Source: Schmidtea polychroa (taxonomy: Eukaryota). Taken from it: a stretch of DNA of 64,000 bases. The translations under genes were made by a program, and so were the position numbers. Location of the stretch: NCBI GenBank assembly GCA_044892525.1, contig CM097885.1, positions 26,786,001 to 26,850,000 on the forward strand, given 5' to 3'. The notes under the pieces were generated by a model that searched no databases, had not been told where the DNA came from, and saw only the letters and a list, made by a program, of their open reading frames with translations. This document shows, one piece after another, positions 11,701 through 54,544 of the stretch; positions within the stretch are counted from its first letter, which is position 1; the number at the start of each line of letters is the position of its first letter.

Positions 11701-12990
11701 AATGTATGAATGAGGATATTGAAAATCTTCCATATGGGTATACAATGGAAGTGGATATTGATATCCCTCAGTGTGTGCATGATTTTTTGAATGATTTTCC
11801 GATTGCTCTGGAAAAAATGTGCCCGCCAGATTCGAAAGTTGAGAAGCTGATGCTCACGCATTGGCCGAAGAAGAACCATGTTCTTCATTGGCGACTTCTC
11901 AAGTTGTATATAGAATTGGGGGCTGTAATTAAAAATGTACATAGGGCAATTAAATTTAAGCATGCACCCATTTTTAAAGATTATATATTGACTAATACTA
12001 ATTTGCGCTCAAATTCTACATGCGAGCTGCATAGAGATTTATATAAATTATTTAATAATAGTCTGTATGGGAAATCCGTGGAAAATCTTAAAAAACGGAT
12101 GAATTTGAGGCTATGTAATTCAGCTGAAAAGATGATTGTATTAGCTTCAAAGCCGACTTTCAAGAAATCAATCAAAATTGATGATGACTTGATTGTTGCA
12201 CATCTAAATAATGATTCTATATGTTAAGACAGGCCTAGCTACATTGGCCAATCTGTGCTAGACCTGTCTAAACTGAGGATGTACCAGTTACAGTATATAG
12301 AATTGGCAAAATATCGTTTAGAGTTTAACTGTGATATAAATATCGTTGCCAGCGACACCGACTCCTTTTTCTTAGAGATAAAGCACTGTAAGCTTGACAC
12401 TCTTTTGCCGGCAATGATTCGTGATAATCTTCTAGATACTAGTAATTATGATTTTGCTCATCCTTTCTATTCAAAGAGTTTGGATTCTGTGATAGGGAAA
12501 TTTAAGGACGAAAGTAAAGGGCTTGGTTATAAGGAGTGGGTGTTCTTGCGCCCTAAGTGTTATAGTTTGTTAGGAGATAAGGCAACACTTAGGGCTAAGA
12601 GAGTTCAGCTTGGTAATACTGAGATAGGGCACCAGTCTTATTTAGACTGCTACAACAACAGCGTAGTATATACGGTGCCACAAACTAGAATAGGGACGCG
12701 TAACCACCAGCTCTTTACTTTTAAGAACAGTAAAATAGCCTTGTCTGGCATATGGGCATTATTTAGGATTTGACGAAACTGATGATGGTCAGATATTTTC
12801 TGAAGTAGGACCACTTTTTGGTGGCTTGAGTCCAGACTTTAACGACGACTCAGATCCGGATAATCCTGGTCAGATATTCGAAGAGATTGGCTCACTTTTT
12901 GGTGGCTTGAGCCCCGATTTTGAAGAGGAATCAGACATTTTCATTCGAGAAATCGGCATCGATATTGACGATGTTATTTTATCAGACTAA
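8727..12990 (+). pseudogene. polB: Protein-primed family B DNA polymerase (pPolB), copy 1, disrupted
   Basis: Exo I YADFE, FHNLRGYD, FIDS, motif A YIDINNLYG, motif B KLFNNSLYGK, motif C DTDS, LRPKCY; EndoVII-like C2-D(H/Q)CH...C2N; N-terminal OTU-like Cys (CFIYS) and His (FHY). Frameshift ~9940, stop 12225-12227, 44-bp deletion at ~12745 relative to copy 2. Confidence 0.95.
8945..9300 (+). repeat. In-frame ~60-bp tandem repeat in the PolB N-terminal region
   Basis: Repeated NVNKNVNKTVNNNAISAEHK units. Confidence 0.9.
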
Positions 12991-15798: not shown

Positions 15799-16809
15799 TG
15801 ATGCTTATAGCTTAAACCGTAACAGGAAAAAAGTCCATTTTAAATTTTATATTAATTTTCTCGACGAATTTCAAAGATTTATAGCTCATTCGATTCACAA
15901 CAACCCACTCTACAGATGAATTTTATAAATGAACCATAAATTATAAATCGTAATTTTGAATCCTAAATTCATATTTAAAAATTTACGAGCTACAAAGTTA
16001 AATATTAAAAACAATAAAAAATTATTACACCTTTTTGATTTTGATTAAAGTTTTATACAGTTTGTTGGTAAGAATTGCATAAAATAGAATAGTAATAATT
16101 CTACAAATTATTGTCCAGATTTTATATTATTTATGTGGATTTTAATGGCAAAATTATTTCAAAAAATGTAAGTTATTTTTAATTTTGAAATTTATTAAAT
16201 AATTATAAATAATGAATTTTAGCAATAATTTTAACAAACATTATCTTAAAAATTGGCATATCTTTCTTAGATAGTGTATTTTATCGATTGTTTGCATGTT
16301 TGATTTATTATAGAAATTTTTTTCTTTGTGATTTTTAAAAAAGGGGAGATTTAAACAAGTAATTGATTTTATATTTAAATCTGTCATAATTTTTAATAAA
16401 ATTTTCCTTAAATTTACTGAATTCAAATTCTATTTGAGAAAAATTTTTTTCGAGGTTTATTTTATTCTTTTCATTTATAATATTAAAATTTTCATCATAA
16501 ATATATTCTTTTTCAATATTTAAATTATTAAACTTTATAATTATTATTAGATTTAGAATTATTATAATTTTCACCATATTTGAAAGTCGTCTTCATTAAT
16601 GTCTTCATATTATTCATTAATCGATCTTTATAGGAAGCTTTTTCAAAAGGTCTGTTTCTATTAGAGAGATGGTAGTTTTCAGTATAGTTTTTATGGTCTT
16701 CAGTACGTGGATAAAGAAAATGATTTTCAGAGTTCAAGGTATTTTTGACTTGGGTTTAGGTTATGCATATGAGATTCAGTTAGGTTGGATTTATTTTTAT
16801 TTATTTCTA

Positions 16810-17493
16810 AGTATATGGTTTGGGCACCGGGAAAACAGGACTCCGCGAGCACAGTACCCCCCCCCCCGGCAGGAACAATTTAAAAAAAAATTTTTTTTTT
16901 CAAGGTCAACTTGAGAACAAATACAATGAGTCATCCGATGACTCATCACTCGTCTAGAACAAAGACAATGACTCATCCGATGACTCATAATAAATTATTA
17001 TTATTTTTCAAAAATATTATTAACTGTGCTCGCGGAGTCCTACTTTTCGTGACCCCAAAACATAGTCTGAAACTTAATATATTTTAAAAATTTATAGTTC
17101 ATTTTGAAGCCCAGACGGAGATCTATCTTTTGAACCATAAAAATAATTTTTATCATTAATAATAAAAAAGTTATTAAGGTTTTGGTCAGAGTCATTTTAG
17201 TCATTTTAAGGTAAATTATTATTATTTTTCAAAAATATTATTAACTGTGCTCGCGGAGTCCTACTTTTCGTCAGCCCAAAACTTAGTCTAAATCTCAAAT
17301 TATTTTAACAATTTATAGTTCGTTTTGAAGCCCAGACGGAGATCTATCTTTTGAGCCATAGAAATAATTTTTATCATTAGTAGTATAAAAGTTATTAATT
17401 TTTTAGTCAGACACTAATTTATAGCAAATTTATAGCAAATTTTATGAAGAAATTTGCGGGTGATTTATCATTCACCCAATCAGGTAAGACTTA
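16810..17493. repeat. Left TIR of element C
   Basis: Reverse complement of ~31377-32490; carries two subterminal units with ACTGTGCTCGCGGAGTCCTACTTTTCGT. Confidence 0.92.
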
Positions 17494-17494
17494 A

Positions 17495-17599
<105 letters not shown>

Positions 17600-17740
17600 G
17601 GGTATTGCTCGCAAGGGTACTGCCCCGAGTTTATCCGACAAAATATTTTCTCCCCCTATGGGTAATGCTTAAAAGGGTATTGCTCACGCTCAACAACTCA
17701 CAAGGGTATTATTAAACAAATCAACAAAACATACATTTAT

Positions 17741-18241
17741 TTAAACAAAAAAATAATGTAAAATTAACAAAGGTAAACCTAATATTGATGTACTACTATT
17801 CGCAGCATTATTGTTTGAAATTGGTAACGTTGAATTGATTTTCAGATATTCTATTGATCCTTTGATTGTTTGAATTTCTCTTAATAATAATTCAATCTTT
17901 TCTAACAAATAATCATGCTTCTTATCAATAATTTTCATATTCTTCTTATTTTCAACAATAGAGTTATTGAAAACTTCAATATGATCAATCAATTTAATTT
18001 TTATATTTTGTATATATGCAAATGATAGTTCATAACTGTTTTCTAAATTCTCCAATCTTTGAGATATTCTTTTTCCTGGATGCTTTGACCATTTTGGTTT
18101 ATCGAGGATATATAAAATATCCATCAACTTGGCTGTATTCGGACAAACACATATTGATTTATTAAAAGACTCCACTGTTATTGTTGTATTGTGTGAGCAC
18201 ACACTCGTTATAATAATTAGCAATATGAATATAGTTTTCAT
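17741..18241 (-). CDS. Predicted secreted/GPI-anchored coiled-coil glycoprotein (166 aa)
   Basis: N-terminal hydrophobic signal MKTIFILLIIITSVCS, CxC, heptad-like middle, five N-x-S/T sequons, small-residue spacer then hydrophobic C-terminus ILGLPLLILHYFFV. Confidence 0.75.
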   Translation of the reverse strand: MKTIFILLIIITSVCSHNTTITVESFNKSICVCPNTAKLMDILYILDKPKWSKHPGKRISQRLENLENSYELSFAYIQNIKIKLIDHIEVFNNSIVENKKNMKIIDKKHDYLLEKIELLLREIQTIKGSIEYLKINSTLPISNNNAANSSTSILGLPLLILHYFFV

Positions 18242-18346
18242 GGTGTATCAAATCAAAACCTTTCTTTTACATTTATAGTCTATCAACCAATCAAAATCAT
18301 ACGGTATTAGTATAAATAAAACATCATATTTTAAATTATTGTAGAA

Positions 18347-18861
18347 ATGTCTCATTTTATGGAAAATCTTTTAAGCGAACTTATCAACAAGAAGATTATG
18401 GAAAGCCTCAGTTTCCTGGTCGATCGGACCGAAAAGATTATAGAAGGAAATCATATTGATTATGAAGATATGCTCAATTGCGATTGCCTCGAAACGAAAA
18501 AATTCTATTTTCATAGGATTTTTAACTGTCTATGCGATGATGAGATGAAGTGGACCCGAATACTAGTAGGGTTCGCTTATATGAAGATCATAATCGAAAG
18601 AAGTTTATGGGACTCTGAACATTATTATCAGTGGTCTCAAGAAGTAATACTTTTATAATCTATATTTTATTAATATATATTTTCTAGATAATCAAGTCAA
18701 AGTTTCAACCATGGATTGAAGCCAATGGAGGATGGGGCGTACTGAATCAACTCGCCAGAAATGCGAAGGAAATAGATGAACAGAAAATGAAATTTAAAAA
18801 CTATATAAAACTTGCAACAGGTGTTGCTATTTTGTATGCATTATCGAGATTTTTTAAATAA
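18347..18861 (+). CDS. Bcl-2 family protein, two exons (18347-18643, 18688-18861), 156 aa
   Basis: BH1-like DDEMKWTRILVGFAY; after a 44-nt phase-0 GT-AG intron, BH2 PWIEANGGW and tail anchor LATGVAILYALSRFFK*. Confidence 0.88.
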
Positions 18862-18938
18862 AAATTAATATAGTTATTTTGTTTCGTTTTTAAATAAAAT
18901 TTTAAATAAATTTACAAACACTAACTAACTAAGATTTA

Positions 18939-19250
18939 TTAATTAACACATTCGCAGTCGTCATCTCCGCATTTCATTATATTTTCAACGACATGATCAA
19001 TACAATCATTCGTAATATTATCTTTAGATTCATCTTTAGGTTCCTCTATAGGTTCATCTATAGGTTCATATATTTCCTCATCAATTTCTTGAGTATCAGT
19101 TTCTTGAGTTTCTTCTTCCTGATCATCAAATCCTGAATCTTGACTCTCAACTACCCAGCCGATATTTAATGCATTTGTAACAGATAATATGTCCTCAATT
19201 TTCACACCAGCTATTTCTGCTAACTTTTCCAACAAAAAGTTGATTACAAA
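18939..19250 (-). CDS. Acidic Polinton accessory protein, last exon (start exon uncertain)
   Basis: Open frame after a TTTAG acceptor at ~19253; D/E-rich centre; C-terminal CGDDDCEC. Confidence 0.5.
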   Translation of the reverse strand, partial: FVINFLLEKLAEIAGVKIEDILSVTNALNIGWVVESQDSGFDDQEEETQETDTQEIDEEIYEPIDEPIEEPKDESKDNITNDCIDHVVENIMKCGDDDCECVN

Positions 19251-19442
19251 TTCTAAATAATAAATAATTCGGTAATTAATTAATCATGTTATTCTTTTTC
19301 GGCAGTCATTTTCATCACTTTAAAACTATATTATAAGTTTGTTTATAGATTTTCTTTGTTAAATTTGCATGTCATTTGCATTTATGTTGCAATTAATAAA
19401 GAGAAAAAACAAATCTGACTAATACATTTATTAAATATAACA

Positions 19443-19853
19443 TTAAAATATTTGTGAAAGTCTAGCAGACATAATTTTCCAAATAGGAGAATATACATCA
19501 TTATTATCAACTTTATATCCCTGGATTGCAATTGTTATATACCAATTTTCATTTTCTTTGAAACTGATTTCATCAAAAGCATCATAAAATCTTGCATATC
19601 TATTGTTGAACCATGCATGTTGATTACACGATAGATTCGAATCTATCCGTTTAAAAACATCATCAATAGTTTTGACATCAATCATTGAAAGCGTGCCGGA
19701 TAAGAATTGAAATTTAGTTGGAATTATCTTGACTGGTGCAACCAATTTCATATTGATTTCTTCTTTCAAAAAATACATTTTGTAGTTGTGGAACATTTGA
19801 ACTGGTTGTACCATTTCTTTAGGTTTTTCGGTGCTTGAAATTTTCTTTGTCAT
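19443..19853 (-). CDS. Conserved Polinton accessory protein (136 aa), possibly OB-fold ssDNA-binding
   Basis: Intact ORF with upstream TATA and CCAAT; homolog at 8-151; the SSB guess rests only on the C-terminal I-x-G...W-K pattern. Confidence 0.7.
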   Translation of the reverse strand: MTKKISSTEKPKEMVQPVQMFHNYKMYFLKEEINMKLVAPVKIIPTKFQFLSGTLSMIDVKTIDDVFKRIDSNLSCNQHAWFNNRYARFYDAFDEISFKENENWYITIAIQGYKVDNNDVYSPIWKIMSARLSQIF

Positions 19854-20053
19854 CGTGAATAATGAATAAATTTAAATGTTACAGGGTTTTTATACCTTTG
19901 ACTCATGCCTATCAACCAATCAGATTATAGGATGTCTTTGTTTAAATTGCATTCAAAATGCATTGATGTTGCATTGTCACATGTTTTGTTATATGTTCTA
20001 TTTACAGATTTATTATTAATGTGTTTCATTATTATTAATGTTTTTACTATTAT

Positions 20054-20086
<33 letters not shown>

Positions 20087-20171
20087 TATTAATATTATTA
20101 CTATTATCAAATATATAAAATATTAAAAACTAAATAACGAAAACTAAATAACATTTATTTGTTAAAAACAT

Positions 20172-20429
20172 TCAAAATGCATTCTTGATATGGTGGAAAT
20201 CCCGAAGAGTTTTAACCAAAACCCATTCTACATATCGCTGATATCTAGCTTTGCAGAAGGAACATCTATTGTAACATAAATATTCTGGATCCATATGTTT
20301 AATTGTTCGATTTATCTTCACATCCCACATAAATTGATGGAAAATCTCGACCATCCTTATCCCCGTCGCATTGAACACCAAATCGGGGATTAATTCTAAC
20401 ATTAATGCTAACATTATTAAATCATTTAT
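20172..20429 (-). CDS. Small hypothetical protein with C-x3-C-x2-C motif
   Basis: Intact ATG-initiated frame divergent from the ATPase; YLCYNRCSFCKARY. Confidence 0.5.
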   Translation of the reverse strand: MNDLIMLALMLELIPDLVFNATGIRMVEIFHQFMWDVKINRTIKHMDPEYLCYNRCSFCKARYQRYVEWVLVKTLRDFHHIKNAF

Positions 20430-20521
20430 GAAAATTTGTCTTTATATACAAATTGAGCACGAGTTCATTAAATCATTGAATATAAACAAATACATATATA
20501 TATATTTATAAAATTTTTGAA

Positions 20522-21148
20522 ATGGAATTAAGAAATGATGCAGTATACCAAATCGTTGGTCCGAGTGGTAGTGGAAAAACATTATTTGTTTGTAAATTAC
20601 TAAAATCAAATTTATTCAAATCAAAATTCAACAGGATTTATTTGCATAGGGGTGCTGATGAACAACATGGATTAACTCAATCAAGTTTCTGTAAATTAAA
20701 AAACATGAAAATAGTAAAGGGATTCGATAAAAACTGGTCCAGCCGATTAAAGAAAGGTGATGTCATTAATATCGATGATCTGTATCAAGAAGCTAATAAA
20801 GAAAAAGATTTTAATAATTTATTTACAAAGATCAGCAGACATATCGGTGTAACAGTTATTTTCATAACACAAAATCTATTTCATCAAGGCGGCGCACATC
20901 GAACACGTAATTTAAATGTACAATATTTAGTTATTTTCAAGAATCCTAGAGATGCAACAGTGATTGATTTTCTTGCACGTCAAGCATACCCTAACAATCG
21001 TAATTTTCTTATCAGTGCATTTCAAGATGCTACAAAAATACCTCATGGATATATATTTCTTGATTTCACGCAACAATGTCCCGATGATTTACGAGTAAAA
21101 ACCGATATTTTCAACCCAAAAGGTGCCATGGTTTATAAACAAAGTTGA
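20522..21148 (+). CDS. A32/FtsK-like genome-packaging ATPase
   Basis: Walker A GPSGSGKT, Walker B VINIDD, SRH...FITQNLF, FKNPRD motifs typical of Polinton ATPases. Confidence 0.93.
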   Translation: MELRNDAVYQIVGPSGSGKTLFVCKLLKSNLFKSKFNRIYLHRGADEQHGLTQSSFCKLKNMKIVKGFDKNWSSRLKKGDVINIDDLYQEANKEKDFNNLFTKISRHIGVTVIFITQNLFHQGGAHRTRNLNVQYLVIFKNPRDATVIDFLARQAYPNNRNFLISAFQDATKIPHGYIFLDFTQQCPDDLRVKTDIFNPKGAMVYKQS

Positions 21149-21166
21149 AAAAATCTATGAATAATA

Positions 21167-21694
21167 ATGTTTCTAAAAGCAAGGGTGAAAAATATTAGGA
21201 AATTAAGAAAAAGTATTAGAAAGAGTACTAAAGTTCCAAAAGTTCCACCAACAACTAGTTATACACCATCTAAAAAACTTGTAACTGAAAATTTCTCTGC
21301 AATGAATCTTATTTCGAAAAATCCTAAACCTAAACGTAAAACCCGTAAAACCAGTAAAACCAGTAAAAAAGTAGTTAAAAATCATCGCAGTTTTCCATTT
21401 TTTAATGCATTGTTAAAGGCCCCGAGTATGAAAAGAATGAATATATTGCAATCATTCCCAAATTTCGTTGTCGATGATTTACTCAATATTATACTTAAAG
21501 TAGTCAAAGGCAAAATTAAAATCAGTAAATCAAAAAAGCATTTATTGAGCAAACATAGGAAACCATTGTTATCTTTAGTAAATAATAAAAATCGTAAGCA
21601 AATGAGGAAAATTATATATAAACAACAAGGTGGATTTATTGGTGCATTGATACCTCTGGCATTATCATTATTAGGTGGAGTTACACAGTCATAA
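21167..21694 (+). CDS. Basic virion core-like protein with GG cleavage motif and amphipathic tail
   Basis: K/R-rich; ends KQQGGFIGALIPLALSLLGG, a pattern typical of Polinton core proteins processed by adenain-type proteases. Confidence 0.75.
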   Translation: MFLKARVKNIRKLRKSIRKSTKVPKVPPTTSYTPSKKLVTENFSAMNLISKNPKPKRKTRKTSKTSKKVVKNHRSFPFFNALLKAPSMKRMNILQSFPNFVVDDLLNIILKVVKGKIKISKSKKHLLSKHRKPLLSLVNNKNRKQMRKIIYKQQGGFIGALIPLALSLLGGVTQS

Positions 21695-21697
21695 ACA

Positions 21698-21925
21698 ATG
21701 GGTGCTAATCCTTCATTGCCCGACATTAAATTTAATTTTAAATCTTCTTGTTGTAATGGAGAAGATTTGGACGAACCCAGAAGACGAAGCCGGTTTCGGT
21801 GGAGTGGCAATATTAAAGAAAAGAGTTCCGAATTCGAAAAAAGAAACCCAGAAGTGGTTATCAGATCAGCTTGCGTACAGTTTGAACAAACCAATGCGGA
21901 AAAGATTTCCAACAAGAGCGTATAA
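21698..21925 (+). CDS. Candidate overprinted myristoylated small protein (75 aa)
   Basis: AAACAATGG start just after the previous stop; MGANPS fits MGxxxS; CC at residues 18-19; overlaps the integrase start in another frame. Confidence 0.45.
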   Translation: MGANPSLPDIKFNFKSSCCNGEDLDEPRRRSRFRWSGNIKEKSSEFEKRNPEVVIRSACVQFEQTNAEKISNKSV

Positions 21926-22143
21926 AACATTTGGTATTGACGATTTATGGCAAATGGATTTGATGGAGATGATACCTTATTCGAAAATTAACAATGGGAA
22001 TAAATATATTTTAACATGTATTAATGTATACAGCAGGTTTGCACGAGCAATACCAGTCAAGGCAAAATCCGCAGAAGAAATGTCCAAGGCAATTAATATT
22101 TTATTTAAAGATGGACATCCTAATAACTTGCAAACAGATTTAG

Positions 22144-22175
<32 letters not shown>

Positions 22176-22815
22176 ATTATTATTTTAGGTAAAGAATTCT
22201 ACAATAGCAAAGTTAAGCAAATCCTCGATAAACTGAAAATAAATCACTACTCGGTACATTCTCAATACAAAGCTGCCCATGTTGAAAGATTTAATCGAAC
22301 ATTGAGATAGATTAAAGAAATTGTTCGTGCATCAAGGTAATAAAAAATGGGTAAATGCTTTACCGAAAATAATAACAAGTTATAATCATTCATCACATCG
22401 AGGACTGAATGGATTGAGACCGGTTGATATTACATCAAAAACATCATTGACTTCTAAGAAATCTGTAAAAATTGCAAAACCTAAATATAAAGTCGGTGAC
22501 CATGTTAGAATTAGTAAAATTAGTGCATCACCATTTATTAAAAATTTTGATACAAATTGGAGTGATGAAGTTTTTGTAATTTCAAAAATAAATACTAAAC
22601 AGAATCCTGTAATGTATGTCATCAAAGACAATGATAATAATATTGTACAAGGGAAATTTTATGAGCAGGAATTACAAGTCATTCCTTCCCCAAAAGTATT
22701 TAGAATTCAAAAATTATTGAAAACTAAAAAGGTCGGTAAGGATAAACAATACTATGTCAAATGGTATGGTTATCAAAACCCGTCATGGATATCAGCAAAA
22801 GACCTAGTAAAGTGA
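21756..22815 (+). pseudogene. Retroviral-like (rve) integrase with C-terminal chromodomain; one intron (22144-22188), frameshift ~22306
   Basis: WQMDL, LQTDLG|KEF after splicing, AHVERFNRTL; chromodomain YYVKWYGY...SWI; apparent 2-nt loss at TTGAGATAG. Confidence 0.92.
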
Positions 22816-23811
22816 ATTTTTATACTATTTTACCAAGCAACAGTTGCCCATTAATTCATCCAGACAATCAAGCCAGTAAATTTATGGTCAATCTCCAGAA
22901 TCCGATTTCTTTAAATGGTGACTGGGAAGTTGCACTGCAAGATTTTACATTCGTGTACAACACATTCCCATTTTATAGTCAATGTAAGATTGATTTCAGA
23001 AGAAATATTGTGAAAACATATAGCGGTATCTTTGTTATCAGTAATTATGATAAAACATCATATTCCGAATCAAATATTAGATTCGCATTGCTATATGTTT
23101 TAAAAGGATGGATTAAATATTAGTTGTGATTTTAAACCATTTACAATAACATTCGAAACTATTGAAGATGCCAAACGAATGGGTTGCAATAAGTTGAAAA
23201 ATATTGTTACGGAGACCGAGTATTTATTACGTTTTAATCTATTTGAAGCAAACAGTGTAATGAAAGAAGAAATAAAAATATCTGTATCGTATAATGATGA
23301 AGTTGAAGAATCATTTACCTTTGCTGATGAATTATATTTTGATAAACTTGATGATTTACTTAAATATTTAAAGTTCAATTGTTCACACATATTTAAAAAT
23401 TTGGAAATTGTGAAAGATTTGATGTTTACCTTCAGTTTGAATGAGGATATTTGCGAAGTTACATTTGATAAAAATTTGGCAAATTCACTTGGATTAGATA
23501 GGCAAAAATATCGAGAAAAATCGACTGGTATACGCAAACCAAGAATACTAGAACATCATCAACAAATGTTCATATATACTAGCATTATCGAACCCATAAT
23601 TGTTGGTGATTCCAGTGTTCCTCTTTTGAAATCGGTATGGATTGGAAAATATGAACTTGATGAAGTTGTCAATATAAATATCGATAATCCCATGTATTTA
23701 CCAATAGCAAGTTCATGTATAAACAATATAGAAATAAATATTCGTGATGATAGTGGAAAACTTATAAACTTTCCAAAAGGTTCAAACTCATTTGACATTA
23801 CATTTTCGTAA
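22812..23811 (+). pseudogene. Minor capsid (penton-like) protein, frameshifted
   Basis: FYTILPSNS...DNQASKF...LNGDWEVAL N-terminus and IYTSIIEP.IVGD..VPLL...YLP...IEINIRDDSG C-terminus; frame break ~23080-23125. Confidence 0.85.
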
Positions 23812-23816
23812 AATAA

Positions 23817-24191
23817 ATGGCTAATTCTGATATTATTAGTATGTATAGTGGTAGCCAATCTGGCGGTGAATTACCATATTTTATTGGTAAACAGTACGGA
23901 TCAGGATGGTTGAGAACTATTGGTAGATTTGCCCTGCCTATTCTTAAACGTATTGGTAGTTTTGGTATGAAAACTGCAAAAGATGTTATTATGAATGAAC
24001 AGAAAATATTACCATCTCTAAAAACAAATGCTTTAGCAGAATTAGGGAAAGTTTTACCAGGGGTTGCAGGTATGTTTCAAAAACCTCCAGCTCCAGCTCC
24101 AGCTCCAGCTCCAGCTCCAAAACGTAAAAGACATGGAATATCACGTATAAACAAACGAATGAAAGGACATGGAACTATATTTGCAAAATGA
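23817..24191 (+). CDS. Conserved Polinton core/membrane-active-like protein
   Basis: QSGGELPYF.G.QYGSGW...RFALPILKR motif, lying between minor and major capsid genes. Confidence 0.75.
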   Translation: MANSDIISMYSGSQSGGELPYFIGKQYGSGWLRTIGRFALPILKRIGSFGMKTAKDVIMNEQKILPSLKTNALAELGKVLPGVAGMFQKPPAPAPAPAPAPKRKRHGISRINKRMKGHGTIFAK

Positions 24192-25407
24192 TTTGTGGTA
24201 AATCTGAATTATGTATATTTGATAGACCGTCGCCCCAGGCTGTAATAGAATTTGGGGCATTTGAGGAAGTTTTTCCTATGAATTCAATTACCGATAGTAG
24301 AAATGATATCGAGTTTTATATTAATGGTTCACAAACTGAATATTTAGATTTGAACGATACTTTATTGACTGTTCAGATTAAGGTTGTAGATAAAGATAGA
24401 AAAGTTTTGGATGCCAATGCAGATGTAATACCGAACAATTTCCTGTTTCATACTCTTTTTAAAGATGCAGTGTTGGGATTTAATAATATCAAGATTGAGG
24501 GCGGAAATAATACATTCATTCACAAGGCATTAATAGAAACTATTTTAAATTACAATTCCGATACTAAAAATACATGTCTTACTCCTATGGGTTATGGCAG
24601 TGATGATGAAAGAAAAAATTGGGTAAAAGGCTCAAAGGTTTTCACCATGTGCTCATCACTACAACTTGATTTAATGGATCAACCGAAATATTTACTACCA
24701 GGAGTTAATGTACATATTAGACTGAAAAGGTCTGATTCTGCATTATCTCTTACTAGTGCAACTACTACACCAATATGTCAATTAGTTGATGCAAAATTAT
24801 TGGTGAGAAGAGTTCGAGTAGACCCCTCAGTATTAGCAGGTCATCAATTGGGTCTTAATTCAAAACATGCAATTTATCCATTAAAACAAAGGAAATTGTA
24901 CAATTTGCTATTGCTAAAGGTGCTTCATCATTCTATAAAGAACAAATATTTGGTGACAGAAGAATGGCTAATTTTATTCTGATAACATTTCAAAGTGAAG
25001 CACAATATAATGGATCATATACTGCGTCCAGCTAAATTTTCAAAAACTTTGGTGTTACATCATTGACTTTGTCGAAAAATACTGATTATAGAGAAACATA
25101 TATTCAAGATTTCGAGAATGACAATTACTGTGCGACATATATGCAGAGTATTGTTCGAAATCTGGGTTATTTAGATAAAAATTTGAATTGCGGAATAACT
25201 CTAGAGGATTTTAAAAGCAAATACCCATTTTTTACATTTGTTTTAGCCCCTGATTTTGATTTAAATCAAAGTCAATTACCTCAAAATGGAAATTTACGAC
25301 TGGATATAAAGTTTGCAAAAACTATTACTGAACCAGTACATGTTATAATATATGGAGTATTTGAAAATGAAGTTCAAATTACTGCAAATAGAACTGTGTT
25401 GGTATAA
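24188..25407 (+). pseudogene. Major capsid protein (double jelly-roll), frameshift ~24885 and stop ~25033
   Basis: KSELCIF..P..Q, IEFYI.G...YLDL, QPKYLLPGV..I.L.R, C-terminal GNLRLDIKFA...IIYGVFEN..I...R.V. Confidence 0.88.
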
Positions 25408-25434
25408 ATGTATATTGAAACACAAAAAGTTGTC

Positions 25435-25820
25435 ATGGAGTAAGTTGTTTTTTTATACTCTGGATTTATTTAAGTAGTTCTGTTCAGGTACTGAGAATTG
25501 GAAAACAGTTATTGGGAAATGAATTTGTTGGAGTTTTTCCTCTTGATAAAATTCCATATTTGAGCAATAATCAAGCAATAATCGTCAATACTCAATCGTC
25601 TCATCTTGGTGGAGAACATTGGATAGCAATATATATGAAACCTGGTAATATATTCGTGTTCGATCCTATGGGTTTTTATTACCCGGCTTTGTTGATATCA
25701 AAACTACAAACAATGGGGAAACCTATTGTGTATAATAAAACTATGTTTCAAAATCCCTTGACCCAAACATGTGGTCAACACTGTTTGGCGTGGTTGTTGT
25801 ACAAAAAGTTTCATGTTTAA
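25435..25820 (+). CDS. Adenain-like cysteine protease, probably with a short 5' intron (25440 to 25474 or 25477)
   Basis: FVGVFP, IVNT...GEHW, FDPMG, QNPLTQTCGQHC; ATG GA|GTAAGT donor joined to an AG acceptor gives MDSVQVLRIGKQLLG. Confidence 0.88.
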
Positions 25821-26190
25821 TAAATGTTTAGTGTATGCTTTGTTGTTGTTATTTAATAAGAAAGACTTTTATTATTTGTTATTTAATAAGAAAGACTTTT
25901 ATTATTATTTAATAAGAAAGACTTTAATTTTATTGTTATTATTAACTTATTAATTATTTTTAATTAACTTATTACTTATCATAAAGCCATCACATGCTCC
26001 GTGCATGCACAGTGCATGTTAACAAAGAACTGACTAATAAAGACAGTCACATGGAAACAGTGTGATTAACAAGGCACGTGTAGATGCAATGTGATTGGCT
26101 AAGAGAGTAAAATATTTAAGTTTCTATGTATGTGTACCGAAATCTTATTAAATTCGTCACAATTAATTTAAAATTTTTACAAAATTCAAA

Positions 26191-26901
26191 ATGGAAGGAC
26201 AAGAAAATAATATTCTGAGATGTATGATGGCTGGCAGCAATGGTAAAATATTATTATTTTATTTATTTTTATATTTATTTTATAGATGATTTGTGGTACG
26301 AAGTTACTGAAAATGAAGATGGATTTATTTTAAATTGTACGTATGGTAATTTTATTTTTATTTATTAATATTATTATTATTATTTAGACGTTATAATGGT
26401 GAGCGATGATGAAGATCCTATAATTATTAGCGACAATGACGATACAATAAAAATTATTAGCGACAATGACGATACAATAGTCATTAGTGAGGATGATGAT
26501 GATGTATCAAGTAATTTTTTATTATTATTGTATTAAATTAAAAACCTTTTTTAGGACATAGTCAAATGATTCCTAATCATATCGACAATGAGTTTTTCAT
26601 CGAACATGCGATGATAGAAAATACTCGTAAGTTTTTATTATTTTTATAATTAATTTTTAAAAATGATTTAGAAGCTTCAAATGTTTTGAATGATGCCCCT
26701 ATTCGGTATGCCCTCTCTGAGGATGATGCTCCAATTTATGCTGCAACTATTGATGAAACAATGCTAATTGATGCCCCCACTGCTATTGGAGAGGAAGCAG
26801 ATTATGCCTCTACTTTTATTGGAGATGCCCCTATTAGGGAGGTCTTTGGAAATATCCTCTCTGAGGACGAAACAGACTCTGATTCAGAGTCTAAATGTTA
26901 G
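26191..26901 (+). CDS. Five-exon acidic protein with tandem SIM-like motifs (178 aa)
   Basis: Exons 26191-26242, 26286-26345, 26388-26510, 26555-26626, 26672-26901; GT-AG introns of 43, 42, 44 and 45 nt, all phase 1; the joined 537 nt has no internal stop. Confidence 0.82.
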
Positions 26902-27106
26902 TTTTTTTTTTTCATGAATAATATTTTTTTATTAATCATAATTATTTATAAATTATTTATAAACTTAAATTATAACTTTCTTTAAATTATTTTAAAAAAT
27001 GCTGTAAATTTGTAATTGACGATTTAAATTTATATGAAGAAAATTTATATGAAGAAAATTTATATGAACAGATGATGAAAATTTATTAGAAAATGATGAT
27101 AAGGAT

Positions 27107-27244
27107 TCTAAATAAGGATTCTATATGTTTAGACAGGCCTAGCTACATTGGCCAATCTGTGCTAGACCTGTCTAAACTGAGGATGTACCAGTTACAGTAT
27201 ATAGAATTGGCAAAATATAGAAATGAATTTAACTGTGATATAAA
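27107..27244 (+). repeat. Duplicated internal PolB fragment upstream of PolB copy 2
   Basis: Near-identical to ~30293-30430 but has TTA (Leu) at 27129-27131 where both long copies have TAA. Confidence 0.9.
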
Positions 27245-27345
27245 ATGTCTCGCAGAACAGATGATGAAAATTTATATGAAATGATGATGAAAATGTAGAA
27301 GAAAATTTTGAAATATTCTTGAGAAAGTTATAATTTAAGTTTAGA

Positions 27346-27488
<143 letters not shown>

Positions 27489-27677
27489 CTTTAAATTTCC
27501 ATGTCTTTGATCTAACTGCTAATAATATTTCCTTTATTAATAATTGTTAATAGTTATTCAGTTTTATAATTATTGTCTAATAAAAACCTGAATAACTACT
27601 AACAATTGTTAATAAAGATATTAAACATTCTATATTACAACAATATTTAGATAATTATTAAATAAATTTATTAATAG

Positions 27678-30600
27678 GCCAATTATATCCTCGGTATTGC
27701 ATGTCTTCGACTGGGCATACTAAAGTATGTCACAAAAACATGAAAAAATACTATGGGCTAGAAAAAATCTAAGGTTTGACGTGGAGAAAGACGCCTTAGT
27801 ACAGATAGCAATAACACCAAAAATTATTCAAAAACTAGTATCAGAAATGAACGGTATGGGGCCCATTAAAATTCAGTTCACGGTTCTCATACAATTTGAG
27901 AAAGATGGCGAAATCCGAGATAATTTTTTCTCCAATAACGCCAAAGTTTTTTCAGAAAACTTTTTAATCAATGGCATCACTAAATTAAATAATAAGATAG
28001 AAAAATTCACATATTTAGGTAGCGGATGGCGGGTTGTTAAAATAAAAGAAATTGACTTCATAATAAATAAGTATAAGATTATGAATAGGTTAGTTGGACA
28101 TAGTTATATCCCCACCCCGACAGCGTTAAAGTCTAAATACGCAATTGTCAATATCCAGAACACAGATGATGATATGTGTTTTATATATAGTGTTCTAGCC
28201 CTCTTAAAGCGTGATGTTATACGCAGAAATAAGCATCGAGTTAGTGCTTACCAAAATTATTTGGATGAAATTAATTTTGACCCCATTAGTGATTGCTAGA
28301 TGAGATTAAGTAACATACCTAAATTCGAACGCAAAAACCGTGAACTGAACTTAGCTATTAACGTTTTAATATATAGAAATAAACCAGCGAAACCTATCAA
28401 CAATGAAGATTATATCAACAATGAAGATTATATCCCTCATCATCCCCAGTTAGATATTATTCACCGATCTAAGGTTATAGGTGGTAAACCCATATATTTA
28501 TTATTATTAGAAGACGGTGATAATTTTCATTACACCGCAGTTTTTGATCTTCAAAAACTTATGAATTCACACCCAAATAGCTCCTGTCACCTTTGGATTC
28601 GCGTCAAATGGTGCCCACATTGTCTTAATGGCTTCAGACATAGGAGCGCTTATGATATCCATGTATCCATGTATCTATGCCGTAAGAATCAAATAGGTTC
28701 TACTTTATATACATTACCGAAAGAGAAAAATTTAATATTCTCAAACTATGCAAAAACAGTAACCCCGCCATTCGTGATATATGCCGATTTTGAGGCGATT
28801 TTACCTGAGGATATCACCCACCATCAAAAACACATGCCAATAACAGCAGGCATGTTACTAATTAACAATTATAACAAAACTAGACCTGCTATCTTTGTAA
28901 AAAATTTATTAGAGATAGAGTTAGGGACCATTGTCACTTCACAGGTAAGTATCTTGGTGCTGCCTGTAGGAAATGTAATGTGTCTCGCAGAATTCAGAGA
29001 CAGTTACCTGTTGTATTTCACAATTTGATGGGGTATGACCTCCATCATATCTTGAAGTATGGTTTGAATAATTTTCCTTCTTGGGAATTGAATATTATTC
29101 CAACCACTACGGAAAAATTTATCTCTCTCATCGCGTACATTAACAAACTGCCTGTTCGTTTTATTGACAGTATGCAGTTTGTTAATTCATCACTTGCAAA
29201 AGCTGTTAAGACTCTTTCCTATCTGCCTTTAACTTCTTCTGTTTTTGATGGCGCAATTGTTCGAGCCAAAGGTATCTTCCCTTATGACTTCGCTACATCT
29301 CTTGAGGTCCTGGAATCAACTCTTGAATTGCCTCCTATTTGGGATTCTGTGTCTAATGATGAATATGAATTAGCCCAAGTTATTTGGACTCAACAAAATT
29401 GCAACAATATGTTAGACTATATGTTAACATACCTTAAACTTGATGTGTTTCTCCTCGCAGATTATTTTACACAATTCCGTGAAAAGGCCATTGCATACAA
29501 TGGTCTTGAGCCTCTAAATTTTTATGGTATTCCCGGTATGTCATGGGCCTCAGCGCTTATGACATTAAAGGAACCCATTGAACTTTTGCAGGACATGGAA
29601 ATGTTTAATTTCTATGAAGGAGGGATACGGGGTGGGTTAACATTTGTTAACAAACATTATGTTGTAAGTTCTGAAGACACAGAACTCTTGTATATAGATA
29701 TAAACAACTTGTATGGTTGGGCCTTAAGCCAAAATCTTCCGTATGGTGATTTTGAATGGGTGTATGATGACCTTGATTCTGTCTTGTATGAATGTATGAA
29801 TGCTGATATTGATAACCTTCCATATGGCTATACTATGGAGGTTGATATCGATATCCCTGATTGCTTGCATGATTTTTTGAATGATTTTCCGATTGCTCCG
29901 GAAAAAATGTGCCCGCCAGATTCAAAAGTTGAGAAGCTGATGCTTACGCATTGGCCGAAGAAGAACCATGTTCTTCATTGGCGACTTCTCAAGTTGTATA
30001 TTGAATTGGGGGCTTTAATTAAAAATGTACATAGGGCAATTAAATTTAAGCATGCACCTATTTTTAAAGATTACATATCGACTAATACTAATTTGCGCTC
30101 AAATTCTACATGCGAGCTGCATAGAGATTTATATAAATTATTTAATAATAGTCTGTATGGGAAATCCGTGGAAAACCTTAAAAAACGGATGAATTTGAGG
30201 CTATGCAATTCAGCTGAAAAGATGATTGTATATGCCTCAAAACCTACATTCAGAAAATCTATCAGAATTGATGATGATCTGATTGCAGCTCATCTAAATA
30301 AGGATTCTATATGTTAAGACAGGCCTAGCTACATTGGCCAATCTGTGCTAGACCTGTCTAAACTGAGGATGTACCAGTTACAGTATATAGAATTGGCAAA
30401 ATATAGAAATGAATTTAACTGTGATATAAATATCGTTGCCGGCGACACCGACTCCTTTTTCTTAGAGATAAAGCACTGTAAGCTTGACACTCTTTTGCCG
30501 GCAATGATTCGTGATAATCTTCTAGACACTAGTAATTATGATCCTGCTCATCCTTTGTATTCAAAGAGTTTGGATTCTGTGATAGGGAAATTTAAGGATG

Positions 30601-31048
30601 AAAGTAAAGGGCTTGGTTATAAGGAGTGGGTGTTCTTGCGCCCTAAGTGTTATAGTTTGTTAGGAGATAAGGCAACACTTAGGGCTAAGGGAGTTCAGCT
30701 TGGTAATACTGAGATAGGGCACCAGTCTTATTTAGACTGCTACAACAACAGCGTAGTATATACGGTGCCACAAACGAGAATAGGTACTAGAAACCATCAG
30801 CTCTTTACTTTCAAGAATAGGAAGATAGCCTTGTCGAACAACGATGACAAGAGACTATGGGTGGGGCCTAATACCAGTCTGGCATATGGACATTATTTAG
30901 GATTTGAGGAAACTGATGCTGGCCAGGTATTTACTCATGAAGAGATTGGACCGCTTTTTGGTGGAGAAAGCCCATCTTTCCATGATCAGGACAGTCCATA
31001 AATAATGATGATGTTACTGACATTGATGATGTCATTTTATCGGACTAA
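27678..31048 (+). pseudogene. polB: pPolB copy 2 (element C), disrupted
   Basis: Same motifs as copy 1; ~730-bp N-terminal deletion at ~27756, stop 28297-28299, ~160-bp deletion at ~28882, stop 30315-30317; retains DDKR. Confidence 0.95.
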
Positions 31049-31376
31049 TGTGATATATTAATATATCTTTTAAAAAAAAATATGTTTTTATTGATTTGTA
31101 TTCTTTTATAATGTATATATTTTATTGAAAACTCGTTATAGTTTTCACAATTCTTTCTATGTTTAAACATTATATTTTCATATAAAATTATCGAAAATGT
31201 TTCAGCATAGAAAGGATATTATTGGTAAAAATTTTTATTTTTGAAAACTTGTAATGTTTTCATTTTTATATAATTTGTAACAGAAAATAATTTGTAACAG
31301 TAGTTTGCAGTCAGCATGCAACTACATCTCTTACCTGATTGGGTGAATGATAAATCACCCGCAAATTTCTTCATAT

Positions 31377-32490
31377 AATTAAAGTCTTACCTGATTGGGT
31401 GAATGATAAATCACCCGCAAATTTCTTCATAAAATTTGCTATAAATTTGCTATAAATTAGTGTCTGACTAAAAAATTAATAACTTTTATACTACTAATGA
31501 TAAAAATTATTTCTATGGCTCAAAAGATTGATCTCCGTTTGGGCTTCAAAATGAACTATAAATTGTTAAAATAATTTGAGATTTAGACTAAGGTTTGGGC
31601 TGACGAAAAGTAGGACTCCGCGAGCACAGTTAATAATATTTTTGAAAAATAATAATAATTTTTTCATCAATCAGTGTCTGACTAAAAAATTAATAACTTT
31701 TATACTACTAATGATAAAAATTATTTCTATGGCTCAAAAGATTTGTCTTCGTCTGGGCTTCAAAATGAACTATAAATTGTTAAAATAATTTGAGATTTAG
31801 ACTAAGTTTTGGGCTGACGAAAAGTAGGACTCCGCGAGCACAGTTAATAATATTTTTGAAAAATAATAATAATTTTTTCATCAATCAGTGTCTGACTAAA
31901 AAATTAATAACTTTTATACTACTAATGATAAAAATTATTTCTATGGCTCAAAAGATTTGTCTTCGTCTGGGCTTCAAAATGAACTATAAATTGTTAAAAT
32001 AATTTGAGATTTAGACTAAGTTTTGGGCTGACGAAAAGTAGGACTCCGCGAGCACAGTTAATAATATTTTTGAAAAATAATAATAATTTACCTTAAAATG
32101 ACTAAAATGACTCTGACCAAAACCTTAATAACTTTTTTATTATTAATGATAAAAATTATTTTTATGGTTCAAAAGATAGATCTCCGTCTGGGCTTCAAAA
32201 TGAACTATAAATTTTTAAAATATTTTAAGTTTCAGACTATGTTTTGAGGTCACGAAAAGTAGGACTCCGCGAGCACAGTTAATAATATTTTTGAAAAATA
32301 ATAATAATTTATTATGAGTCATCGGATGAGTCATTGTCTTTGTTCTAGACGAGTGATGAGTCATCGGATGACTCATTGTCTTTGTTCTCAAGTTGACCTT
32401 GAAAAAAAATTTTTTTTAATTTTTCCTGCCGGGGGGGGGGGGGTACTGTGCTCGCGGAGTCCTGTTTTCCCGGTGCCCAAACCATCTACT
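31377..32490. repeat. Right TIR of element C with four subterminal units (214-bp period)
   Basis: ACGAAAAGTAGGACTCCGCGAGCACAGT at ~31603, 31817, 32031 and 32252. Confidence 0.92.
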
Positions 32491-35400
32491 TTTCTAGTAT
32501 TTGATATCTTTCTCAGGCTGCCTATTAATATTACAATTACGATAGTATTCTCTACTCGTATCATGCTTATCGAAACAATTTTTTTTCTCAATATTATTCC
32601 ATCCATCTCATTTAATTTAAGAATGCTATTGAGTGCTATTGAATGTTATATTTTCAGACATTTTTTACATCGTGAATTTAAAAAAATATAATATATTATA
32701 TTATATCATATAATTTATTGGTTTTTTTAATATTAGTGTTTTTAATAAATGAAACGCGGTGTTGAAAACGAAAATATAGTTGGTACACACAAATACCCTT
32801 TACTAAACTTTTTTGAATTTCGAGAATCACTTCATCAAACCTATGATTGGTTTCTCAGCAGATATACAAAAAGAGCATGATCTTCTAAAAGTTGTTGGGC
32901 TGAGAGGTAAGACAAAAATAAAATATGAAATCACATAAACAGGTAAAAAGTAAAAGACAATATGAAACGATAAAAAGTACCACCAAAATCGAAAAAACAA
33001 CTTAAAAATAAATATAAAATAAGTATATTAATTTAATAAAATATATGATAGATAAAACAGAATTAAAACAATAAATTAAAAGAATCAAAAACATTAAATA
33101 CCGATAAAAGAAGAAAAAACAACACTAAATATATACAGTTAATAGAAAGGATTTAGAAAAATTAATATAATCAGTAGCTCATGTCACAATTTTTTTAAGG
33201 TGTCTCGTTCCCACTACTGCCTAATTCCAATAAATAAATATAAGAAAAACGCGAATCAACGACAGGTAGTCCAACTGACCGTATCCATGAGTTTTCTGTT
33301 GTCTCATTGACGCTGCAAAGATGTAGCTAATCAACCCACCTGATCGATAGACAGACTAGATGGTTCGGCTAATCGCAATAAGTGAAAATTCACAATATCT
33401 GCTAATGATACATGTAGAGTCGACTGAACTCACAACAATCCGATTGAGAATTTTTCTCAGAGTTAAAACAGTCTGAGGGAATTTTTCGGGGAATAGTTCA
33501 CCTTATATAATCTCTCTAAATCGTTTGAGTGGTTGAGATTGTGTAGTTCGTGTAAATAGTTTGTGAATAGTTACGATGATGTAATATCTTCAAATGATTT
33601 AGGGGTGGTTGTGATTGTATAATTTAGTTAAAGGTTTGCGAATAGGTAAAAATTATATAACTTATTTAAACGTTTCGTAAATGATTGAATTATGGGATTC
33701 ATTTAAATGATTTGATTATATAATTTATTTGAATATTTTTAAAGATGATTGAATTGCATAATTAATTTAAATATTTTAAGAATGGTAAATTAGATGAATT
33801 ATTTAAATATTTTATGCATGATCAATCCTATAATTCGTTTAAACATTTCCTAAACTGGCAAATTAAAATATCGACCTTGATAAAAATGATTTTGTTTTGG
33901 TTAATGAGCCTACGAGCTAGCATCATCAACAATGCGAGATCCATCCGGTGCGAATGTATGGGGAATTCATTTTCTTTGTCTGTTATCAACGATCATGAAA
34001 AACGATGAGATATTATAGAACTTTACATATAATTTTGTTGCATAAATTTACCATCCCTACTTGTTCACTTTAGAAATGTCAAAGAACCCAACAGCTGCGA
34101 CACCTCTTCGGCCATGCTTCTCGTCATGCTTCTCGTGCGCTGACAAGAATTCAATAATCAAGACCCTACAAACCCAAATCGGTTTGCTAAAGAAAGTTGA
34201 TCACCTAGAAGGAACGTATTTCACGCCCGCACAAATAAAGGGAATGCGGATGAAGTTGTCGCGAACCGAGCACTGTCGCGATAGTCTGATTGAAGAGAGC
34301 CGGTCGTTGCGACTGCTGGTCAAGGAGCAAACAAGGTCTACGTGCAGGCAACGATCACGAAAAAGATCGCCTCTATACCAATTTCGGAAGAAGACGTCTT
34401 TCCGGGTCATCACCAGCCAGCGAACCCAATTCAATCAGAAGATAAAGTCTGTAGGAGTTGCGTGAACGATATCTCCCACGATATCTGACGTTCGCATCAC
34501 TGGTGTTAGCCAAGCGTACCCTTAAATCCGGTCCCTTCTCCGGTACTAAAGAAGACTCTTAAGCGCCGCCAACCAACGCGGGCCGAACGGAATAAAAAAC
34601 AAAAGTTGCTTCAAGCTGGGCGAGAAACGAAACTAGTAGCCGAAGCCATACAGATGCATCAACAGGTGCCAACCGAAATAACAGCGTTATCGCAGTTTCC
34701 GTTCCGTCTAATTCCGTCATCCAGTACTGACAGGGAAGAGAATGCGAGACTTCTTCGACCTCGACACGATTTTCGCAGAAGCTTCCCCATCGACTTTGTG
34801 ATAATACGTATGAAATCTGAACTCCTGATGTCGAACGAATGAACTAACTGTTACAGAATTTTCTTCGCTTAAGTCCGTTGTATTGCAGTGACCTATGAGG
34901 CGTACTTCTGTGTTATGTGGTAGTCTATGCTATTAAATGTGTTTATTCGAATAAATGTTGAGTTACGCAGAGGTGGTTGTTCTGTTTTCCCGAAGTTTTT
35001 CTGTAGTGTTTTTAAACCGGGTAAGAGTGTGATGATGAATGTGTAATAAATAACGAAGCCAAATAAACTTGATCGATACTTCGAATAATGAACAAGACGT
35101 AATTCCTTCTATCTTCCGTCAGGATGAAGGAGTAGTCCTAAGGCAGGGTCTCACCTTCTTCATCTTATTCCGTCAATATGGCACAGCACCAACATAACGC
35201 AAATCAAAGGTGTCATGGTGATAAAATCGTCATGTGGGTTCTTGATTAACAGTCGACTAATGGTGTATGTTTGTTTTTTTTTGATTTGACCGTCATCCCC
35301 TGGTAACGAGTGAACGTTTGTTGACCTAGTCGACTACCCAACAAAGTTGATAAGCCGTTACATGGTGGACCAAGAAATCTGCAATCGGCTAAGTTTCATC

Positions 35401-35928: not shown

Positions 35929-37401
35929 TAGGATTGCCAGACGTCCCGGTTTTGAGATCATTGTCCCGGTGTCCCGAAAGAGGTCTTCAGGACGCTCAAT
36001 TGTCCCGGTTTTTTTGCATTGCAATATTTCAAACAAAATTTAAAATTTTGGAGGACAACTGCCTCCAAAGTTTAGTTTATTTATCACACTTTTCTATTTT
36101 TTAATATGAAAATTTTCCTGTTGGGTAGTTTGTTTTTGTTATGAATGACAGATGGTTAAGTTGTTTTTGTTTAACTTAATCTGTGGCCGTCGTGGGAAAG
36201 TTAGTTTTTTGTTTACAATATTTAAAGCTATTAAATTATTTAAAAATATGTGAGTTAATTGATTTTTATATTTATTATTTAAATTTTTTATATAGTTACC
36301 CTAATTTAAAAAAAACAAAAAGTGTCAATTTCTACAAAATTATAAAGAGCAATTTGCTTTTATTAAAAAAGGCAAAAATGAAATAGAAGCGTTTCGCAAG
36401 CATTGTAATTCGAATTTTAGTATCAGTGATTTGTCTGATATTAAAGATCATATCAATAGCCAGAAACACAAATATGCAGTTGCATCTTCGAGCATGTGTA
36501 AAAAACCTTTGAAAAACATTTTTTGTAAAACGTGATAGTGATTCAAAATTTTTACCAGCAAGTGTTAGGACAATTTTAAGAAAAAATGAAGAACATGGTT
36601 TAGCAAGTATGGTGAAAATTAAGCAGTTTCATTATGACATAATTCAATTTTATGAAACATTTGTTACTTATTTAAGCAAATGTATCACGCTATTAAAAAG
36701 TATTCGGTGTTTTCATGGATGAATTTAAAAGAAAAGCCAGAATAGGAAAGTATTAGAAACTTTTAACTATCTAAAAGAAAAATATAAAGTTTTAAATGAT
36801 ACGTTCCTATTCAGCCAAATTCAAACCGTTTCAACCATAATGTCAGAAGAAAAAAATAGAGAAGGAAATGAATGGACGCAGAAATTAACCTCCGAAAAAT
36901 GGAGTTTTATTTTGTCGAAAATGGAAACTGAATTTGCAGAACAATATATCGATATTTTTAAAATATGTGAATATTTATTTTGTATTCCTGGCCATAATGC
37001 GAATGTGGAGCGCATATTTTCCCTAATGGAAATTCAATGGTCGGACGAAAGAAATCGGTTACTGTTGAAGCAATATTTAAATGCGTCGTTAATTTTACAT
37101 TTCATTGTTACAAAATGCATGAATATTTAAAAAATACAAATTTGTTAAAGGAGGCAAGATCAAGCCGTAAATATGATTAGGAGTGTTTTAATAATGTATT
37201 TCCACGCTTTTGTATTTCCATTTTTGAATTAGAAATACTTAGTTCCTTTATTTTTGTATTATTAATTTTAAGTTTTATTTATTTTATTGACGTTTTTCAA
37301 TTAATATTATATATTAAGTCTTTTTGTTACAATGAATTTTTTATGTTTTTGAATAAATTTTTATTGTCCCGGTTTGTCTTGGTGAAAATCTGGCAACCCT
37401 A
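35929..37401 (+). mobile_element. Internally deleted hAT transposon, inverted copy of 2030-4432
   Basis: TIRs TAGGATTGCCAGA / TCTGGCAACCCTA; ~1-kb deletion junction at ~36537; near-identical C-terminal ORF 36840-37130; TSD only approximate. Confidence 0.88.
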
Positions 37402-54430: not shown

Positions 54431-54544
54431 AATATTTTTTACTTTTATATGGAATCGGAGGGATTTTTATTTTTGTTGAGTTGGTATTATTATTCGGTAG
54501 GTTATAATCGATTTCCACGCGTTCTCGATTGGCATAATAATTTA

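Follow-up and report, generated by a model that had tools for sequence, protein, structure and literature searches.

In the 64,000-nucleotide stretch of Schmidtea polychroa DNA analysed here (the window), five short exons carrying a tandem array of four SIM-like units very probably encode a spliced 177-codon N-terminal leader of pPolB, the polymerase of a Polinton/Maverick element. The "five-exon protein" that the original prediction had placed at these exons as a gene of its own is probably not the main product, because its stop codon lies within a donor-like site.

The probable leader exons lie in a Polinton/Maverick element

The element that holds these exons is a Polinton/Maverick of 15,681 bp (16810-32490, no strand assigned), bounded by TIRs of about 625 bp at 96% identity, AGT...ACT ends and a perfect 6-bp TSD, TTTCTA, at 16804-16809 and 32491-32496. 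Pfam matches were obtained for a Pox_A32 ATPase, an rve/chromo integrase, a Peptidase_C5 protease and a DNA_pol_B_2 polymerase, the rve match (E 2e-6) falling below the curated cut-off of rve. Relatives were collected through an alignment of the protease, which led to 11 metagenome loci, only some of which reach pPolB; an ATPase alignment gave two distant loci. Orthologues of the core genes are present in the locus L008, and the ORFs at the usual major and minor capsid positions are 39-61% identical to L008 ORFs, with no Pfam capsid match. The copy at 16810-32490 is dead, its integrase, capsid and polymerase frames being broken.

The leader exons sit between the protease and pPolB of this element. 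Their upstream neighbour is the adenain-type protease (25473-25820, + strand, Peptidase_C5 E 2e-6), which has an AATAAA at its stop. Downstream lies the pPolB body (27678-31048, + strand, DNA_pol_B_2 E 7e-29), which begins at 27678 with a zinc-motif exon that has no ATG of its own and continues with TP-like, OTU-like and catalytic regions. The TP and OTU labels are putative assignments from position, and Pfam gave no match over the TP-labelled region. The body is orthologous to the pPolB of L003 and L008, and it is broken by a deletion near 27755, by stops at 28297-28299 and 30315-30317, and by frame changes near 28.9 and 31.0 kb.

Five exons are separated by four short predicted introns

The leader exons are found on the + strand at 26191-26242 (exon 1, which has the ATG), 26286-26345 (exon 2), 26388-26510 (exon 3, which carries the SIM-like array), 26555-26626 (exon 4) and 26672-26896 (exon 5, acidic, with no fold predicted, ending in T before a donor-like site). 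Between them lie four phase-1 introns of 43, 42, 44 and 45 nt (26243-26285, 26346-26387, 26511-26554 and 26627-26671, all +), with GT..AG ends and a GC content of 5-11% versus 28-42% in the exons. After splicing the frame stays open until TAG at 26899-26901, and this open frame was kept in none of 20,000 shuffles of the exon letters. Unspliced readings were rejected, as they meet a stop 7-15 codons beyond each of exons 1-4; an alternative upstream donor at 26341 closes the frame, as judged by eye. A scan for such short introns found 17 distinct acceptors in the whole window, four of them inside these 430 bases. An AT-rich integrase intron of 45 nt (22144-22188, +) served as a control: its excision restores an integrase motif that is uninterrupted in L008, which indicates that such introns are real in this element.

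The five-exon splice model is sound as a set of predicted joints, and the exons, GT-AG introns and open frame originally described at 26191-26901 were all confirmed. When contigs of four sequencing runs were compared with 21600-27150, no joint at introns 1-4 appeared among the 15 joints listed. Summed depth over 25878-26993 was far below that of the core genes in the four runs, contig depth being a measure that cannot rank genes, and a base difference at 26790 common to all four runs is synonymous. Upstream of exon 1, a weak promoter-like region (25960-26190, +) has three CANNTG boxes, one CCAAT and 31% GC.

A probable join of the leader to the zinc-motif exon of pPolB

At 26897 a donor-like GTTAGT, which departs from the usual consensus by one base, contains the TAG at 26899-26901, and GC drops there from 39% to 10%. 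The proposed intron 5 that would start at this donor (26897-27677, +) has 781 nt, 17 times the length of introns 1-4; it contains an AAT microsatellite and has 13% GC outside a pasted 138-nt piece. The last base of exon 5 is T (phase 1) and the first two of the pPolB exon are GC, which together would give a Cys codon at the position of the first zinc-motif Cys in L003, L004 and L008, three loci that encode the zinc motif directly after their own ATG. Only one of the five exon ends yields this Cys, and none of the three pPolB copies in the window has an in-frame ATG before the zinc-motif exon. Among the 34 T|GT sites in 25821-27640, the longest preceding open frame is found at 26897 (82 codons, 39% GC); 27677 ranks first in AT content among the 27 AG sites scanned and is one of two that yield Cys. 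Element D, which also has a pPolB in the window, contains an equivalent intron of 324 nt (38374-38697, +) with a canonical donor after T, and the same Cys codon is formed.

Micro-exons within 26902-27640 were rejected, the long open frames there being microsatellite or pasted pPolB piece. No AATAAA occurs in 26447-27578, which is weak evidence, since only one of the four further gene ends compared carries this signal at the stop. In its make-up, the DNA preceding 26191 weakly resembles that ahead of pPolB in L003 and L004, and the DNA preceding 27678 does not. In both loci, AT-rich introns of 41-50 nt occur in the pPolB N-terminus, located after the zinc motif. Retention of intron 5 may also yield a minor short isoform. 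Leaders of this kind are easily mis-called as separate small genes.

Two side observations concern these introns. In element D, 38100-38373 holds two phase-1 leader exons, the leader being cut upstream by other repeats, and one of them has a faint S-x-M-I-P stretch in common with leader exon 4 (tblastn E 2.2). The 138-nt piece inside proposed intron 5 (27107-27244) comes from the element's own pPolB, being 99% like 30293-30430, and is flanked by an imperfect inverted repeat.

Exon 3 encodes four SIM-like units

As originally described, exon 3 encodes the peptide DVIMVSDDED-PIIISDNDD-TIKIISDNDD-TIVISEDDDD. Its four SIM-like units lie at 26390-26416, 26417-26443, 26444-26473 and 26474-26500 (+), with Ser at residues 43, 52, 62 and 71. 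The four-unit peptide spans 26387-26503, and the units are spaced 9-10 residues apart. A SIM is defined in PMC12751080 as a core of four residues, at least three of them V/I/L-type, together with an acidic and phosphorylatable flank; our relaxed pattern consisted of three of four core residues V/I/L/M, then S/T, then at least two acidic residues of three. The reading of the units as a phospho-SIM consensus holds as a likeness at the sequence level: the relaxed pattern is matched by all four, but the strict core, hydrophobic at its first and last positions, by only two. Each of the four Ser is also a CK2-type site (S-x-x-D/E) and thus a putative site of phosphorylation.

Shuffling reproduced four relaxed motifs once in 50,000 trials with the whole protein and never in 50,000 trials with exon 3. 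With the duplicate unit dropped, the three remaining motifs were reached in 3 of 50,000, and a single motif is already produced by 14% of whole-protein shuffles (14-18% across shuffles). The array supplies 4 of the 10 pattern matches in 127,996 six-frame codons. Chance SIMs are described as arising easily in acidic disordered regions (PMC12751080).

An exact 28-nt repeat is common to units 2 and 3, so the four units are not independent. Judged by its sequence, the array is one chance-level motif amplified by tandem duplication, and the weight therefore falls on how the copies diverged. Over eight codons of the three distinct units, 8 of 11 changes fall at codon position 3 and none at position 2, in a test that is biased in favour because the units were aligned by the motif; the three at position 1 are conservative exchanges between Ile and Val or Asp and Asn. 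When equally many changes were made at random, both diverged units retained the motif in 425 of 100,000 trials. The divergence of the units favours selection at the protein level, that is, coding constraint.

The DIDDVILSD tails that the original prediction had set beside the array are present at 12961-12987 and 31019-31045 but fit neither SIM pattern, and both differ in frame from the polymerase ORF piece before them. As an observation in its own right, this acidic-hydrophobic C-terminal nonapeptide is kept in both pPolB copies, the surrounding DNA being only about 71% alike.

The predicted tail is acidic and nearly free of lysine

Lys makes up only 2 of the 178 residues of the tail, compared with 4-10% of residues in six further ORFs of this element; the tail also has 26% Asp+Glu, a net charge of about -40 and three W/F/Y-x-x-L/I/V matches. 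Its sequence has no SUMO acceptor consensus and no basic NLS-like motif; LxCxE, CR1 and CxxC motifs are absent, and the leader has 3 Cys. Pfam gave no match on the exon pieces, with no RING or other E3 domain, and a single-sequence structure model of exon 5 reached a pTM of 0.10. Four Asp-Ala-Pro-(Ile/Thr) units at 26692-26835 (+) differ synonymously. Over the same interval, one contig of run X3 has 29 bases in place of 74, an in-frame change of net 45 bases and a weak observation with a short side; by eye, this variant still keeps one Asp-Ala-Pro unit.

Relatives of the leader and of the array

When the five exons were searched with tblastn against the 11 protease-anchored relatives at E 0.5, no match was obtained, and the array is absent from them. 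The exon 4-5 read-through matched none of 909 candidates, and the exon 2-3 read-through gave only two weak matches among 1.84 billion representatives, one to a low-complexity repeat of a bivalve and one to a bacterial-type protein that is unrelated. The Atlas search with exons 3 and 5 was blank, as was the search of viral contigs with the protease, exon 5 and the motif pattern; the PDB search gave a single match at E 4.3. The sensitivity of these searches is low because the queries were exon pieces and not the spliced whole. The original prediction had looked to homologous Polinton ORFs for conservation of the motifs; none was seen for the array, no leader homologue having been found.

A similar sequence had also been pointed out at the N-terminus of the element D polymerase. 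A single SIM-like motif does lie in the pPolB linker there (39000-39041, +), but with a shuffle P of 0.09-0.15 it is near chance and not significant alone. With a looser pattern, four of six other pPolB N-termini (those of D, L003, L004 and L013) have a single SIM-like motif, at a shuffle P of 0.06-0.22 each and with L003 and L004 being kin. The same pattern gave no motif in the pPolB N-terminus of L008 or of copy 1, whose leader is missing. These single motifs are suggestive only. A second L013 motif was dropped because its core probably lies within an intron acceptor.

Possible roles of the array

The best explanation, to which we give nearly an even chance, is that the exons equip the polymerase/terminal-protein precursor with a multivalent, lineage-specific tail for docking to SUMO. 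The exons would yield an acidic, unfolded, nearly lysine-free tail that is spliced via intron 5 to the zinc-motif exon, one SIM-like nonapeptide of exon 3 having presumably been amplified to four copies. Given the leader, the chance that the phosphorylated array would bind several SUMO moieties at once appears slightly better than even. The predicted order of polinton pPolB is TP-vOTU-exonuclease-palm, with a cut between TP and vOTU that leaves TP on the 5' ends (PMC11071308); with this predicted cut, the tail would remain on the TP fragment fixed to the genome 5' ends. The tail may thus act in cis, bringing the replicating element to nuclear sites rich in SUMO and docking it there, or, as an alternative outcome in cis, it may screen the element ends from SUMO-dependent repair and silencing factors. 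SUMO-SIM contacts are reported to recruit SetDB1/Wde in Piwi silencing in Drosophila (10.1101/533091) and SIMC1-SMC5/6 to viral episomes (PMC12751080), and adenovirus reshapes SUMO on repair factors via E4orf3 (PMC7552057). We consider it rather unlikely that, as a four-SIM phospho-regulated array on the genome-end-bound part of the polymerase, the tail would equip each free genome with a multivalent SUMO-chain reader, to which retention of intron 5 could add a soluble competitor.

A generic acidic low-complexity spacer, or a DNA-mimicking tail that damps DNA binding by TP/polymerase, on the same pPolB leader is a less probable rival, in which slippage, together with a coding sequence rich in Ile and Asp codons in an AT-rich genome, would have produced the SIM likeness incidentally. 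The pPolB N-terminal linkers vary wildly (copy 1 has Asn/Lys/Val repeats, D an acidic linker and L008 a Ser/Pro one), a single motif turns up in 14-18% of shuffles, units 2-3 are a recent duplication and no homologue was found, all of which fit a spacer. However, none of the 11 changes is at the second position, the core has remained hydrophobic and its Ser is fixed, an order that would not have to be preserved in a spacer; the CK2-type character of all four Ser also speaks against it. The stand-alone decoy of the original prediction is unsupported, the exons being better read as the spliced pPolB N-terminus. It is improbable that a separate protein of 178 residues (or an intron-5-retained main isoform) acts in trans by sequestering SUMO chains and thereby lifts silencing, since it would leave pPolB without a start codon or the conserved first Cys, and its final codon and stop fall exactly on a donor whose phase is the one required, as is also the case in element D; the lack of AATAAA in 26447-27578 (weak) and of a basic NLS-like motif points the same way. 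Yet the frame closes cleanly at 26899-26901, and the slot upstream of PolB is that of the small motif-rich "Oncoid" genes in adintoviruses (PMC8502044). Nematode Mavericks are also reported to have intron-bearing cargo (10.1101/2022.07.12.499685), Piwi-guided silencing in Drosophila needs SUMO-SIM contacts (10.1101/533091), and a stable decoy would be well served by the low Lys content (2 of 178 residues).

The tail might instead bind another partner, serving as an acidic activation domain for early genes, binding Atg8 via LIR-like sites or being recognised by a reader of the Asp-Ala-Pro repeats, which seems to us highly improbable. LIRs and most acidic activators use an aromatic residue; the exon 3 cores have none, and LxCxE, CxxC and CR1 are absent. 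In favour of such a partner are the 26% Asp+Glu, the charge of about -40, the three W/F/Y-x-x-L/I/V matches and the four Asp-Ala-Pro units, and the SIM and LIR binding modes are described as related (PMC12751080).

Comparison with known systems

As in Polinton/adintovirus pPolB (PMC11071308), a long N-terminal extension precedes the catalytic part here in one polypeptide. Unlike there, the proposed leader consists of five phase-1 exons with an acidic SIM-like array before the zinc motif. Intact vertebrate Mavericks are reported to be intronless (PMC8097293), and dinoflagellate elements to have introner insertions (PMC11957031).

In RNF4, four adjacent SIMs lead to a preference for SUMO chains (PMC12751080). 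The array resembles it, as far as sequence alone can tell, in its four close hydrophobic cores and acidic flanks within a putatively disordered N-terminus, and differs from it in having no RING or other ligase part and in its origin by recent tandem duplication. Membership of the SUMO-targeted ubiquitin ligases was rejected, no RING or other E3 domain being found. Only one of the seven SIM-like sequences of HSV-1 ICP0, SLS-4 (IVISDS), is described as clearly functional and is likened to the SIMs of Daxx and HCMV IE2 (PMC3174244). Unit 4 (IVISE) nearly matches SLS-4, and units 2-3 (IISD) have the core, Ser and acidic run. Unlike the array, the SIM-like sequences of ICP0 are dispersed through its ORF, and ICP0 acts through a RING ligase (PMC3174244). 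Of the two tandem-SIM models proposed originally, RNF4 is therefore the fitting one.

The leader shares with the adintovirus Oncoids a place upstream of PolB, richness in motifs and many CK2-type sites (PMC8502044). It was rejected as an Oncoid, as it is without LxCxE, CR1 and CxxC and is probably fused to pPolB; SUMO and splicing are unmentioned in the main text of PMC8502044. Mobile elements that engage the SUMO or silencing machinery include Ginger1 and Mutator transposases, which carry Ulp1 domains (PMC2836005), and VANC21, a transposon-borne, sequence-specific demethylation factor with anti-silencing activity (PMC8616336). In this respect the proposed tail is alike, and Ulp1 is also fused to a replication/transposition enzyme; unlike the Ulp1 protease and VANC21, exon 3 is a motif array without a catalytic part. 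In the open-licence literature we found no report of SIMs in a Polinton protein, and adintovirus supplementary maps could hold similar leaders. The pPolB N-termini of animal Polintons are largely unannotated, and the topic they touch is how such elements cope with host silencing and DNA-end surveillance. The SIM array points to a fast-changing spliced leader as a possible host-conflict surface; if SUMO binding fails, what remains is a low-complexity leader of an ordinary kind, in an element that is dead.

Other genes of the element and its relatives

In the left arm of the element, a Bcl-2-like ORF at 18335-18658 (+) has a Pfam Bcl-2 match at E 0.034, and with its low-confidence model Bcl-2 family chains rank first, none at E 0.001; Bcl-2 homologues are already known from adintoviruses (PMC8502044). 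An ORF at 17741-18247 (-), with a signal-peptide-like start, CxC, a coiled coil and a hydrophobic end, is a possible surface protein, for which Pfam gave only coiled-coil noise. Acidic ORFs with a C-terminal CxC adjoin a common conserved gene at 18939-19283 (-) in the window and at 1978-2418 (+) in L008; the latter has a single SIM-like VIYISDSDS (shuffle P 0.31) and the former none.

A ubiquitin-conjugating E2 gene (222-722, -, UQ_con E 2e-12) lies at the left end of L008, a near-complete related Polinton, and may belong to that element. A small TBP gene is found at 2393-2869 of L008 (Pfam TBP E 5e-18) and, by eye, downstream of the protease in L010; no TBP ORF was seen in the window's element. 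A conserved ORF of about 155 residues with a nuclease-like start lies just after the protease in 7 of the 11 loci (L003, L004, L005, L007, L008, L009 and L010) and is missing between the protease and the leader in the window's element.

Elsewhere in the window there are a near-identical inverted pair at 1916-4439 and 36001-37813, which we take to be a hAT-like transposase region, a putative IS1595-like transposase at 44465-45458 and a 24-nt minisatellite at 54400-55700.
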